From sequence record MK524176.1: 64,000 nucleotides of DNA; one strand, 5' to 3'. Made by a program: the position numbers and the translations under genes. Positions 13,232 through 14,740 of the stretch are shown one piece after another; position 1 is the first letter of the stretch; each line of letters starts with the position of its first letter. A model generated the notes under the pieces. That model made no database searches and was not told where the DNA came from. It saw only the letters and a program-made list of their open reading frames with translations. The DNA is from Escherichia phage PHB11.

Positions 13232-13645
13232 ATGAAAATATGTAGTACTTGCAGAATACCAAAAGATGAAAGCTTATTCCATAAGAATAAGAACAAGAAA
13301 GATGGTCTTCAAAGTCAATGCAAAGACTGTGCAAGACTTCGTGATGCAAAGAGTTATCAAGCAAATGATAAAAGGAAAGAGGCTATCAAAAGCACTCGTA
13401 ACTTCAAGAGGGAGTATAATAAAACTCTAACTAGAAGGTACAAAGCTTTATGCAAATGTCATATATGTGGTGAGAAAGAACCAGTTGCACTGGATTTACA
13501 CCATACAGACCCTTCCCAGAAAGATTTGAATCCTGCATCACTTTATTCATACTCCACAAAAAGATTAAAAGATGAAATCAGAAAGTGTATTGTCTTGTGT
13601 GCTAACTGTCACAGAAAAGTACACGCTGGTATCATAAAAGTTTAA
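13232..13645 (+). CDS. HNH endonuclease (homing endonuclease-like) inside the tRNA array
   Basis: 137-aa ORF with Cys clusters and HH..(N)..CANCH motif (LDLHHTDPSQKD ... VLCANCHRKVH); GGTG RBS. Confidence 0.7.
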   Translation: MKICSTCRIPKDESLFHKNKNKKDGLQSQCKDCARLRDAKSYQANDKRKEAIKSTRNFKREYNKTLTRRYKALCKCHICGEKEPVALDLHHTDPSQKDLNPASLYSYSTKRLKDEIRKCIVLCANCHRKVHAGIIKV

Positions 13646-13646
13646 T

Positions 13647-13720
13647 GCTGCTTTCGTATAATTGGCTATTACACATCCCTTGTAAGGATGGAGATGCGGG
13701 TTCAAGTCCTGTGAGCAGCA
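13647..13720 (+). tRNA. tRNA-Thr (anticodon TGT)
   Basis: Acceptor GCTGCTT/GAGCAGC, stem CATCC/GGATG, loop CTTGTAA, T-loop TTCAAGT, CCA encoded. Confidence 0.65.
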
Positions 13721-13819
13721 CCAATTCAGAGGTCAAGTGAAAGACCGCTTTGAGTCAACTGAAGACCGTAACAAATCCCACGGAGTTGAGTTAGCGGCAC
13801 AACTTCAGACCTCTTTCAT

Positions 13820-13891
13820 ACTCGCTTAGTTTATATGGTAAAACATCACCCTTACAAGATGGAGAAAAAGGTTCAAGTCCTTTAGTGAGTA
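13820..13891 (+). tRNA. tRNA-Val (anticodon TAC)
   Basis: Acceptor ACTCGCT/AGTGAGT, D-arm GTTT-ATATGGTA-AAAC, loop CTTACAA, T-arm AAAGG-TTCAAGT-CCTTT, CCA encoded. Confidence 0.6.
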
Positions 13892-13895
13892 CCAT

Positions 13896-13970
13896 GTTCC
13901 AGTATCCCAATTGGCAGAGGATGCAAGCTCAAACCTTGTATTAGTGACGGTTCGAATCCGTCTTGGAACA
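13896..13970 (+). tRNA. tRNA with anticodon CAA (Leu-type anticodon; no long variable arm in manual fold)
   Basis: Acceptor GTTCCAG/TTGGAAC, stem GCAAG/CTTGT, loop CTCAAAC, T-arm GACGG-TTCGAAT-CCGTC, A73, CCA encoded. Confidence 0.55.
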
Positions 13971-14087
13971 CCAATTTTAGGAGAACACTATGAGTGATAA
14001 GTCAATTGCAAAAAAGTTTATAGCGTCATTCAAAAACAGGCGTAAAAACAAAGATTGTGAAACACTGTATGGTGTTCTTGTAGGTAA

Positions 14088-14160
14088 GCAGGATTAGTTC
14101 AAATGGATAGAGCAACAGTCTACGAAGCTGTTAATAGGGGTTCGAATCCCTTATCCTGCG
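14088..14160 (+). tRNA. tRNA-Arg (anticodon ACG)
   Basis: Acceptor GCAGGAT/ATCCTGC, stem ACAGT/GCTGT, loop CTACGAA, T-loop TTCGAAT, CCA encoded. Confidence 0.65.
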
Positions 14161-14182
14161 CCAATTTAAAGAGGCTATTTAA

Positions 14183-14740
14183 ATGAGATATTTGAAGTAT
14201 GCTTCATGGATTTTCCTAGCTTTGTTAGACCCATTGGCAGCAATCTTAGCAGTTATCTTAGCACCTTTCGTAGTTCCATTTTACAGTGAGAAGAAAGGAC
14301 ACTTACCTTTCGGATTTAGATGGATGGAAACTTATGACAACCCAATTGACGGTGATGAAGGTCATGTCAAACGATGGGCTAAGATTAGAAAGATTGGTAA
14401 GCTTGGTATCTATATGCAGAGAGTCGGTTGGCTCTGGAGAAACAAAGCTTATAACTTCTCCTACCATGTGTTAGGAAGAGATGTAAAAGATGTTACTAAG
14501 TGGAAAGGTAATATCAACGTAAGTTCTGACCCTGAAGATAATCAGACAGGTTATCTCTTAATGTGGAACAGTAATGCTTGGGGATTATTCGCTTTTATCC
14601 CATCAATTAAAGTCTTTGGTAAACAATTCTACTGGAGAATTTATGTTGGATGGAAACTTAAAAGTGTTGTCCCAGAAGAAAGAGCATTCTCAAGGGAAAG
14701 AGTTATGTTGACATTCTTTATTCATCCACTAAGAAAGTAA
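14183..14740 (+). CDS. Hypothetical membrane protein encoded inside the tRNA array
   Basis: 185-aa ORF, AAGAGG RBS, N-terminal hydrophobic segment IFLALLDPLAAILAVILAPFVVPF. Confidence 0.6.
   Translation: MRYLKYASWIFLALLDPLAAILAVILAPFVVPFYSEKKGHLPFGFRWMETYDNPIDGDEGHVKRWAKIRKIGKLGIYMQRVGWLWRNKAYNFSYHVLGRDVKDVTKWKGNINVSSDPEDNQTGYLLMWNSNAWGLFAFIPSIKVFGKQFYWRIYVGWKLKSVVPEERAFSRERVMLTFFIHPLRK

Follow-up and report, generated by a model that had tools for sequence, protein, structure and literature searches.

A putative free-standing HNH homing endonuclease gene in the tRNA-Gly/tRNA-Thr spacer of a Felix O1-type tRNA array

The window, that is the whole stretch of 64,000 nucleotides analyzed (Escherichia phage PHB11, sequence record MK524176.1), is a Felixounavirus genome, the phage being a Felix O1-like myovirus. 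The tRNA array of this genome and the elements in and around it are:

10368-10396 and 10459-10488, promoter-like sites upstream of the tRNA array (consensus match only)
10515-16100, plus strand, tRNA array, 26 tRNA genes (ARAGORN)
13143-13217, plus strand, tRNA-Gly(tcc), left flank of the HNH insertion (ARAGORN)
13218-13223, plus strand, AATTAA, what remains on the left of the 7-nt Gly/Thr spacer, which reads AATTAAT when empty (junction comparison)
13224-13645, plus strand, inserted cassette, 422 bp (junction comparison and reading of the sequence)
13232-13645, plus strand, HNH endonuclease gene, 137 aa, ATG start (PHROG 2255, 5e-41)
13232-13336, plus strand, zinc ribbon at the N-terminus, with C4, C7, C30 and C33, presumed to bind DNA (cysteine conservation)
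13451-13630, plus strand, predicted HNH beta-beta-alpha-metal catalytic core (C76, C79, H90, H91, N125, C123, C126, H127, H131)
13647-13723, plus strand, tRNA-Thr(tgt), allele A, right flank of the HNH insertion (ARAGORN)
13990-14097, plus strand, mini-ORF of 35 aa within a 109-nt sporadic insertion, tRNA-Leu(caa)/tRNA-Arg(acg) spacer
14088-14163, plus strand, tRNA-Arg(acg) (ARAGORN)
14183-14740, plus strand, DUF7338 (PF24027) gene, 185 aa, ATG start (Pfam, 2.4e-62)
14749-14824, plus strand, tRNA-Gln(ttg) (ARAGORN)
15192-15926, plus strand, DUF7217 gene between tRNA-Phe and tRNA-Ser(gct) (Pfam, 2.5e-88)
16265-16282, terminator-like hairpin downstream of the tRNA array (consensus match only)

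All genes of the array are co-oriented, four ORFs interrupt it, and 25 of the 26 ARAGORN calls are backed by Rfam. A scan of positions 10200-16500 against Rfam at E <= 0.1 returned tRNAs and sub-threshold noise only, no intron or other RNA family being found in the spacers. The number of promoter-like sites is not above the shuffled expectation (15 found vs. 14.4 expected). The order of the tRNA genes is constant in 33/33 arrays compared, and what varies among them are single tRNAs (Arg-tct, Trp-cca and Arg-acg, present or absent), the tRNA-Thr alleles and the nuclease cassettes. The shuffling of tRNA genes envisaged in the first-pass annotation of this DNA thus finds no counterpart in these arrays.

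The DUF7338 match in the 185-aa ORF spans residues 1-184 and scores 210 bits, the cut-off being 27; a chance ORF is not in question here either. The protein features one N-terminal transmembrane helix (residues about 7-33), the rest folding into an alpha/beta domain of about 150 aa. Of the 33 arrays compared, 32 have the gene in the same position, and it occurs in at least 224 phage records. Being present in essentially all relatives, it is not mobile, but a vertically inherited, conserved resident unrelated to the HNH cassette and part of no mobile unit; its location and membrane nature were correctly annotated at first pass. Some records label this gene holin, a possible identity: the protein has one TMD, but a folded domain comes after it, the gene is placed in the tRNA array rather than in a lysis cassette, and the holin candidates listed by Whichard et al. 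in Felix O1 do not include it (PMC3185647). The second conserved protein gene of the array, DUF7217, was found in 31/33 loci; its mechanical ORF start, at 15129, overlaps tRNA-Phe, and the annotation of Felix O1 gives the shorter, 244-aa form. The mini-ORF ends on a TAG made up by positions 8-10 of tRNA-Arg(acg); the spacer hosting it measures 5 nt in most relatives, and an equivalent CDS is annotated in S19cd.

Two more nuclease genes reside elsewhere in the window:

47192-47707, minus strand, HNH_3 + AP2 endonuclease gene (HNH_3 1.9e-14, AP2 2e-9)
57314-57811, plus strand, gene of a GIY-YIG-only protein (Pfam SegE_GIY-YIG, 1.4e-27)

The HNH-AP2 gene adjoins the DNA polymerase gene (47704-50433, minus strand), as previously noted, and on the minus strand it is directly downstream of it, with a 4-nt overlap with the polymerase stop. 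It is sporadic: among 157 matching records, 49 have it in full and the others share just the 3' 147 nt. The GIY-YIG ORF does encode a SegE-type catalytic domain, with no recognizable DNA-binding domain. It had been counted among selfish nucleases scattered across the window, but is found at >=80% coverage in 261/297 related records, Erwinia phages included. Given such conservation throughout the subfamily, the refutation criterion set at first pass gives no clear sign of selfishness.

The ORF at 13232-13645, correctly placed between tRNA-Gly and tRNA-Thr at first pass, is the orthologue of Felix O1 ORF47 (NP_944871), already annotated as HNH endonuclease, with which it shares 97.7% DNA identity. 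Matches to profiles are uneven. PHROG 2255, 'HNH endonuclease', is the family hit at 5e-41, while Pfam HNH (17.4 bits, cut-off 21.4) and HNH_2 (15.5, cut-off 21) stay below threshold, NCBIfam gave no match for this ORF, and the best PDB sequence match is the HNH domain of LtrA (E = 0.02). The PHROG 'endonuclease VII' and 'Lar-like' families match the zinc-ribbon part only, those of endonuclease VII covering residues 1-84 or matching weakly. The architecture of the protein emerges from the comparison of 47 homologues, 34-88% identical: C4, C7, C30 and C33 are invariant, as are the CxxC pairs C76/C79 and C123/C126, which brace the HNH core and would hold a structural zinc, and the catalytic-core residues H91, H127 and H131; H90 and N125 are conserved in at least 90%. 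In the AF2 model the zinc-ribbon region has strands at 16-18 and 26-30. A chance ORF is ruled out by 137 homologues (E down to 1e-83) and by a dN/dS of about 0.07 (range 0.05-0.10). The protein is under strong purifying selection, and by its sequence the ORF reads as an intact HNH nuclease gene.

The boundaries of the insertion were established by comparing 12 filled and 20 empty sites. Anchored junctions were used, as a global MAFFT alignment of the Gly-Val segments misplaced the gap. In empty sites the CCA end of tRNA-Gly is followed by AATTAAT (or AACAAT, AATAAT) and then by GCTGC, the distance between tRNA-Gly and tRNA-Thr being 6-7 nt in all 20. Junctions are identical in the 12 filled sites. 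The cassette consists of an 8-nt leader, GGTGTGAT, which completes the Shine-Dalgarno sequence AAGGTG, and of the 414-nt ORF; it is hence a minimal cassette, a ribosome-binding site plus an ORF. tRNA-Thr(tgt) begins 1 nt past the stop codon. A TTAA repeat is found at each edge (13220-13223 and 13642-13645), and breakpoints are ambiguous within about 4 nt. The left flank is nearly invariant, the tRNA-Gly(tcc) sequence being 100% identical in 32 of 33 loci and different at one base in L040 only. The insert falls between two complete tRNA genes, and no intron family is found around it; an endonuclease of the intron or intein type was accordingly discarded.

Full-length HNH DNA was detected in 14 of 349 related, array-bearing GenBank records, and exact-junction scans of IMG/VR found 1 filled and 25 empty sites (26 contigs). 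At least 90% of close relatives lack the gene; the Gly/Thr site is occupied in two genera. HNH sequences fall into two alleles, 84% identical to each other. Allele 1 is found in the window, Felix O1 and pEC-M719-6WT.1 (96-98% identity within the group), allele 2 in BPS15Q2 and SFPB (98.8%). This partition does not match that of the backbone gene DUF7217, according to which the window, Felix O1 and BPS15Q2 group together at 92-95% identity, with pEC-M719 and SFPB about 76% identical to these. In BPS15Q2, flanks are 95-99% identical to the window, the HNH gene only 85%. Synonymous divergence (dS) of one allele from the other is about 0.97. The two-by-two discordance of allele and backbone needs at least two recent transfers, and both diverged alleles have moved between lineages with very different backbones and into the same site. 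Mobility, which had been set as a test of the initial proposal, is supported by presence and absence at the same site in near-identical relatives, by clean empty sites and by a history at odds with that of the backbone.

Altered copies were also found. The HNH gene of SFPB carries a +1 frameshift. ST11 retains a 127-nt fragment of the gene, bordered by a 77-bp duplicated stretch of the junction. The tRNA-Thr of BPS15Q2 is a chimera of alleles B and C, with two mismatches in the acceptor stem and the crossover at the shared GGTTCGA motif of the T-arm. The oddities of ST11 and SFPB could be assembly or sequencing errors; errors aside, the sequences of SFPB, ST11 and BPS15Q2 look like scars of decay or repair left by the life cycle of the HNH element. 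Three tRNA-Thr alleles circulate in the population. Alleles A and B are each found both with and without the HNH gene, allele C is confined to HNH-less genomes (0/12 vs. 9/20; Fisher p = 0.012). Sliding-window identity did not delimit co-conversion tracts well, since in the flanking tRNA genes identity remains at 96-100% from one genus to another.

The reading favored here, to which a probability of roughly 70% is given, is that a free-standing HNH homing-endonuclease gene (HEG), the ORF at 13232-13645, colonized the 7-nt tRNA-Gly/tRNA-Thr spacer of the Felix O1-type array. The gene would have no promoter of its own and be co-transcribed with the tRNAs, as suggested by the 14-nt and 1-nt gaps separating it from its neighbors and not by the promoter and terminator scan. 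In a mixed infection the protein would nick or cut the HEG-less allele at or near the Gly/Thr junction, a target expected to be extremely conserved because it is composed of tRNA genes, and which would be split by the insertion in HEG-carrying genomes. Repair of the break by recombination with a HEG-carrying genome would copy the cassette together with more or less of the adjoining tRNA sequence (co-conversion), and copies would decay or disappear over time. Plain homologous recombination in co-infected cells could, however, spread or remove the cassette with no help from the nuclease.

Other histories of the gene account for part of these data. It may be an old vertical resident on the way to being lost, which entered once, before the Felixounavirus/Mooglevirus split, and whose nuclease played no part in its spread; rarity, the filling of the same site in two genera and the decay of the SFPB and ST11 copies would all fit. 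This is rather improbable, as the allele/backbone discordance demands at least two recent transfers, with cassettes 96.3% and 98.8% identical on backbones about 76% identical, and as alleles so distant at synonymous sites are hard to reconcile with the similarity of BPS15Q2 and window flanks. Moreover, a dN/dS of 0.07 is unexpected in a useless relic, and random deletion cannot restore the 7-nt spacer exactly. Purifying selection on the protein is compatible with a domesticated or dual-use nuclease from which the phage benefits, either because cutting of the tRNA region excludes co-infecting relatives, or because segmental amplification of nearby tRNA genes is promoted against tRNA-cleaving host defenses, as by the SegB of T6. 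SegB amplifies tRNA-Tyr against Septu, and its homologues are statistically tied to tRNAs (PMC13096335); paralogues of the HNH gene travel with extra tRNA genes, and the junction duplication next to the ST11 fragment looks like the scar of a local duplication. Yet ST11 is a single record, possibly misassembled, no tandem amplification of tRNAs was found in the window or in the 12 HNH-carrying loci, and more than 90% of relatives thrive without the gene. A benefit of this kind is unlikely as the explanation of the locus, and could go together with homing instead of replacing it.

A housekeeping role in DNA processing, either as a junction resolvase of the endonuclease VII type or as the HNH partner of the terminase in packaging, was rejected as scarcely credible. 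Some records name the gene 'endonuclease VII', PHROG families of that name match the N-terminal zinc ribbon, and the gene of the terminase large subunit (16532-18148) lies about 3 kb downstream; but 10 tRNA genes and two ORFs are interposed, no match to Pfam Endonuclease_7 was found at E <= 0.1, which also speaks against membership in the T4 endonuclease VII family, and the gene is sporadic, being missing from at least 90% of close relatives, which package and resolve DNA normally.

The association with tRNA genes extends to distant homologues of the putative HEG. The four looked up are all inside tRNA arrays, and tRNAs were found within 1.5 kb at 54 of 80 diverse homologue loci in IMG/VR. At 33 IMG/VR loci a same-strand tRNA starts no more than 30 nt from the stop codon of the homologue, or overlaps it, and at 11 it is U8-A9-G10 of the tRNA itself that serves as stop codon (TAG). 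Members of this group are typically inserted immediately 5' of a tRNA gene, 14-16 nt past the previous CCA end, and often lack a stop codon of their own, ending on the TAG of the tRNA. Further inter-tRNA spacers are occupied by HNH paralogues, in some cases with an additional tRNA gene directly upstream, as a tRNA-Trp 14 nt upstream; the family therefore contributes to the gain and loss of tRNA genes, and not to their rearrangement. No relics of Felix O1 ORF44 and ORF45 (134-aa and 150-aa nuclease types) were detected by tblastn in the long spacers of the window. A broader proposal, possible but doubtful, is that the 137-aa protein represents a clade of HNH homing endonucleases not described so far and specialized on tRNA-gene boundaries, whose mRNA would be cut from the tRNA precursor by tRNA-processing enzymes, and which, carrying adjacent tRNA genes, would act as the chief force behind the turnover of tRNA repertoires in large phages.

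The gene is already annotated and the element is of a known kind, of which it is a good natural example. Six HNH copies had been listed in Felix O1 by Whichard et al. in 2010, who raised the question of a link to introns or inteins (PMC3185647). The window gene and ORF47 are one and the same, site included; that work included no population, insertion-site or mobility analysis of the HNH copies, nor biochemistry on them. The closest analogue of the cassette is SegB of T4, a GIY-YIG homing endonuclease encoded in a tRNA cluster, which drives the inheritance of the surrounding tRNA genes (PMC2330249), and the homologues of which are statistically associated with tRNAs (PMC13096335). Like the HNH gene, segB is a free-standing nuclease gene set between tRNA genes and is absent from close relatives (T2L, RB1, RB3); it drives its own inheritance along with that of neighboring tRNAs, and the sequence targeted, the T-psi-C motif, belongs to tRNA genes. 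The catalytic folds differ, GIY-YIG vs. the predicted HNH beta-beta-alpha-metal fold, and the two enzymes do not share a common descent; as no GIY-YIG match was found in the HNH ORF, the protein is a functional analogue, not a member, of the Seg family. The cassette analyzed here is also smaller (137 aa) and exactly fills the inter-tRNA spacer. Activity, target and homing of SegB were shown by experiment, whereas all three are deduced from sequence for the HNH protein.

F-TflI/II/IV, enzymes of the T5 tRNA region, are free-standing phage HNH homing endonucleases. The HNH motif, the free-standing organization and the sporadic distribution are shared by the window gene with these enzymes, with T4 MobE (PMC2790892) and with the I-HmuI-type nickases, and nicking or cutting near the insertion site would be expected. 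In contrast to MobE, the I-HmuI-type enzymes and F-TflI/II/IV, the window protein combines, within 137 aa, a Cys4 zinc ribbon at its N-terminus with a long helix and an HNH core that is itself Cys4-braced, and no significant sequence match to any of them was seen. In a further study, nuclease genes are reported at boundaries of genetic exchange between phages (PMC10448857); the window cassette likewise lies at allele switches (tRNA-Thr alleles, Ala/Leu mosaics, chimeric Thr).

A role in shaping phage mosaicism is attributed to free-standing homing endonucleases, few of which have natural filled and empty alleles so clean. When empty, the site is a spacer of 7 nt flanked by two tRNA genes that hardly vary, and two alleles, along with decayed and chimeric intermediates, have already been sequenced. 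Since both Felix O1, which carries the HNH gene, and relatives lacking it are culturable, homing, target recognition and tRNA co-conversion can be directly tested. An unrelated HNH family with the same habit of residing in tRNA arrays would show whether the link between nuclease and tRNA amplification known for SegB is general, and, if a boundary-specialized clade truly exists, phages might be able to amplify tRNAs rapidly against tRNA-cleaving defenses, in a SegB-like fashion.

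In a search with 5.8 kb spanning the tRNA region, 349 phage records matched. Almost all of them belong to myoviruses of the Felix O1 type, from Escherichia, Salmonella, Shigella, Citrobacter and Erwinia, so the window is a segment of a Felixounavirus genome. The top match is Salmonella phage S19cd (97% identity), and Felix O1 matches at 94.5%. ARAGORN places 26 tRNA genes in one orientation at 10515-16100, 25 of them supported by Rfam. The sole call that Rfam does not match as a tRNA (E <= 0.1) is tRNA-Met(cat), 10768-10844 (+), whose equivalent is left out of the GenBank annotations of several relatives. 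The gene immediately 5' of the array (8935-10350, +) encodes a DUF2828 plus DUF7788 protein, PHROG 'RNA-binding protein'. Judged by position and description, the product appears to correspond to gp130 of Bas63, a protein described as Ro60-like whose gene likewise immediately precedes the tRNA genes of its phage; binding of tRNA-like RNAs and action against a host defence have been proposed for gp130 (PMC11482910).

Genes discussed in the text (tRNA calls by ARAGORN)
13143-13217, + strand, tRNA-Gly(tcc), left of the HNH ORF
13232-13645, + strand, HNH ORF, 137 aa, between tRNA-Gly(tcc) and tRNA-Thr(tgt)
13647-13723, + strand, tRNA-Thr(tgt), right of the HNH ORF
14088-14163, + strand, tRNA-Arg(acg), left of the DUF7338 ORF
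14183-14740, + strand, DUF7338 ORF, 185 aa, between tRNA-Arg(acg) and tRNA-Gln(ttg)
14749-14824, + strand, tRNA-Gln(ttg), right of the DUF7338 ORF
47192-47707, - strand, HNH_3 plus AP2 gene, overlapping the DNA polymerase stop by 4 nt
57314-57811, + strand, SegE-type GIY-YIG ORF, 165 aa, GIY-YIG domain only, no DNA-binding domain

The two protein genes that the first-pass annotation placed inside the array, an HNH endonuclease and a membrane protein, are both confirmed. The 137-aa protein matches PHROG 2255 'HNH endonuclease' (5e-41), the Pfam HNH score being 17.4 bits, under the 21.4 threshold. Across 47 homologues (34-88% identity) an N-terminal Cys4 ribbon (C4, C7, C30, C33) is invariant, as are C76, C79, H91, C123, C126, H127 and H131 of a Cys4-braced HNH core; H90 and N125 fall just short of invariance. 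In the AlphaFold model, which is of high confidence (pLDDT 94), the ribbon is seen together with a long helix and one beta-beta-alpha unit. The features defining the family in sequence are present and the protein is a putative nuclease, the fold and curated-profile tests being only suggestive of membership. Intact copies are 11 out of 12, and dN/dS is 0.05-0.10, the between-allele comparison (dS ~0.97) included.

The HNH segment, searched alone by sensitive blastn, is full length in only 14 records, duplicate Felix O1 and BPS15Q2 entries counted. The gap between tRNA-Gly and tRNA-Thr measures 6-7 nt in 20 HNH-less loci, empty sites reading ...GGATGCTCCA/AATTAAT (or AACAAT, AATAAT)/GCTGCTTTCG..., and all 12 filled sites CCA/AATTAA-GGTGTGAT-ATG...GTT-TAA-T/GCTGC. 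Comparison of filled and empty junctions sets the insert at 422 bp, made up of an 8-nt leader, which completes the Shine-Dalgarno sequence AAGGTG, and the ORF; both edges carry a TTAA repeat. Exact-pattern scans of IMG/VR found 25 empty junctions and 1 filled. No promoter-like site was found in the 14 nt from tRNA-Gly to the HNH ATG, and 1 nt separates the stop codon from tRNA-Thr. From these 14-nt and 1-nt gaps we infer that the HNH message would be co-transcribed with the tRNAs and freed by tRNA processing.

The cassette exists as two alleles, 84% identical to each other. One is common to the window, Felix O1 and pEC-M719-6WT.1 (96-98%), the other to Salmonella phage BPS15Q2 and the Mooglevirus SFPB (98.8%). 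DUF7217, a second conserved gene of the array, taken here as a backbone gene, groups the same phages otherwise: window, Felix O1 and BPS15Q2 fall together (92-95%), pEC-M719 and SFPB are ~76% identical to this group and 87.8% to each other, and the HNH-less phages L016 and L021 are similarly distant (79%) from the Felixounavirus group. Each allele therefore sits on both backbones at one constant site, a pattern which requires lateral transfer.

Scars found in three genomes are those expected from a homing cycle. The HNH copy of Shigella phage SFPB (L031 4426-4806), 98.8% identical to that of BPS15Q2, has a 1-nt insertion causing a +1 frameshift at codon 31, which marks either a pseudogene or an error in sequencing; no full-length DUF7338 is present in SFPB. 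In Salmonella phage ST11 (L032 3370-3899) an empty-type Gly-Thr site is broken inside tRNA-Thr by 127 nt of mid-HNH gene, flanked by a 77-bp junction duplication (Gly nt 56-75, spacer, Thr nt 1-51); this arose either by aberrant repair or through an assembly error. The tRNA-Thr just 3' of the HNH gene in BPS15Q2 (L035) is chimeric, 5' allele B being joined to 3' allele C at a shared GGTTCGA; its acceptor stem contains two mismatches, it folds more weakly (-15.4 vs about -21 kcal/mol), and it looks like a recombination junction within a tRNA gene. The highly divergent allele C is confined to HNH-less genomes (0/12 vs 9/20, p = 0.012), alleles A and B occurring with and without the HNH gene. The flanking tRNA genes are too conserved for conversion tracts to be traced.

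The HNH gene is probably (about 0.7) a free-standing HNH homing endonuclease gene. The comparisons show that the cassette is minimal and sporadically distributed, that its empty site is clean, that the protein is under selection, and that the gene was transferred laterally to one site. In the remaining steps the gene would be expressed from the tRNA transcript, its product would cut or nick the empty Gly-Thr junction of a co-infecting relative, recombinational repair would copy the cassette with some flanking tRNA sequence, and copies would finally decay. Since the insertion splits two invariant tRNA genes, the target is expected to span or adjoin the junction, which would explain the immunity of carriers. 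Vertical inheritance with loss is contradicted by the discordant HNH alleles, and is unlikely. A role selected in the phage, either competitor exclusion or SegB-like tRNA amplification, is compatible with homing and conceivable, if doubtful. Absence from >90% of relatives speaks against a function in packaging or as a resolvase, which is very improbable.

HNH-family paralogues occupy two other spacers of the felixounavirus array. The one between tRNA-Met and tRNA-Ile is Felix O1 ORF44; those preceding tRNA-Ser(tga) are 130-134 aa long and 48% identical to the window protein. Paralogues likewise start 14-15 nt past a tRNA 3' end; the tRNA in question is either an additional tRNA-Trp(cca) or a sequence resembling tRNA-Arg(tct) that takes the place of the tRNA-Arg(tct) of the window. 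A 150-aa HNH protein unrelated to this family resides between tRNA-Ser(tga) and tRNA-Leu(tag). Neither the paralogues nor the 150-aa HNH are present or recognisable in the window. The site before tRNA-Ser(tga) (window 12212-12549) holds alternative cassettes across relatives (compared loci L030 2650-3100, L034 2190-2640, L033/L004): tRNA-Arg(tct) only in the window; an Arg(tct)-like sequence that has a long variable region and, 15 nt on, an HNH paralogue in Felix O1, SP22 and L014; tRNA-Trp(cca) and, after 14 nt, a 134-aa paralogue in S19cd, L004 and L015. S19cd lacks tRNA-Ser(tga).

Four more distant homologues were looked up (41-62% identity, on 97-152-kb contigs), and every one is located within a tRNA array. 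Among 80 diverse IMG/VR homologue loci, 54 have tRNAs within 1.5 kb, and in 33 a same-strand tRNA begins <=30 nt from the HNH stop codon, or overlaps it. In 11/80 the ORF runs through the 7-nt acceptor stem and stops at U8-A9-G10 of the tRNA, read as TAG, a stop codon of its own being absent (L041, L043, L044, L047, L055, L079, L080, L096, L103, L105, L111); RNase P processing would strip the stop codon from such messages. The window has a borrowed stop too, in a basic 35-aa mini-ORF (13990-14097, +; MSDKSIAKKFIASFKNRRKNKDCETLYGVLVGK; SD AGGAG) whose TAG is positions 8-10 of tRNA-Arg(acg). The 109-nt insert that it occupies, between tRNA-Leu(caa) and tRNA-Arg(acg), is sporadic (7/33 related arrays), most others having a 5-nt spacer. 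In about one third of relatives (L004, L005, L009, L011, L012, L015, L017-L019, L036, L040), though not in the window, an 80-aa ORF that matches no family separates tRNA-Arg(acg) from DUF7338, whose start it overlaps by 4 nt.

The membrane-protein ORF is a full-length DUF7338 (2.4e-62), its segment >90% identical in >200 felixounaviruses, with diverged copies in T4-type phages (RB43-, S16- and Matisse-like). DUF7338 is found in 32/33 arrays and DUF7217 in 31/33, at constant position, and the DUF7338 gene is not part of a mobile element. The N terminus forms a single helix of strong hydrophobicity (Kyte-Doolittle 2.44 over residues 9-27; AF2 helix 2-33), after which comes an alpha/beta domain modelled with confidence (pLDDT 94). 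The alignment has 16 invariant columns, including D52, W83, W85, R86, N87, Y90, R152, W157 and K158, N53 being conserved at >=90%. No solved structure resembling the protein was found. The 'holin' label of some records is unsupported, size and location speaking against it. DUF7338 resides inside tRNA arrays in three other lineages (L022, L023, L042; an 85-kb contig, an Av-05-like 121-kb phage and a 97-kb contig), and in S16- and RB43-like phages (L024-L026, L029) tRNA genes lie no more than 1-2 kb away from it. The preferred reading, at low confidence, is that the DUF7338 product is an accessory protein anchored in the inner membrane and expressed along with the tRNAs.

Selfish nucleases had been thought scattered across the window, a view that holds in part. 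By the DNA polymerase gene the HNH_3 and AP2 domains were verified, the strand being corrected to minus; this gene is full length in only 49/157 matching records, other relatives keeping just its 3' 147 nt, and from this distribution the site seems to hold alternative nuclease occupants. The GIY-YIG gene, its SegE-type domain verified, is kept in 261/297 related records, Erwinia phages included, and looks domesticated rather than mobile; its protein is frequently mislabelled 'NAD synthetase'. The interpretation in the first-pass annotation is thus partly supported: the HNH cassette is sporadic and transferred, and gene-by-gene comparison found the same tRNA order in all 33 arrays.

The closest functional analogue is T4 SegB, a homing endonuclease within a tRNA cluster whose recognition motif lies in tRNA genes and which brings adjacent tRNA genes along (PMC2330249); amplification of tRNA genes by SegB against Septu was lately demonstrated, and the enzyme is tRNA-associated across phages (PMC13096335). 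As SegB is a GIY-YIG enzyme, the HNH gene is an analogue, not a member. In mycobacteriophages, a role in the spread of tRNA genes has been proposed for HNH genes located within the tRNA clusters (PMC6409571). The HNH gene is already annotated in Felix O1, where Whichard et al. counted six HNH copies with no further analysis (PMC3185647). With filled, empty, decayed and chimeric alleles all occurring in nature, this HNH element is a convenient test system.
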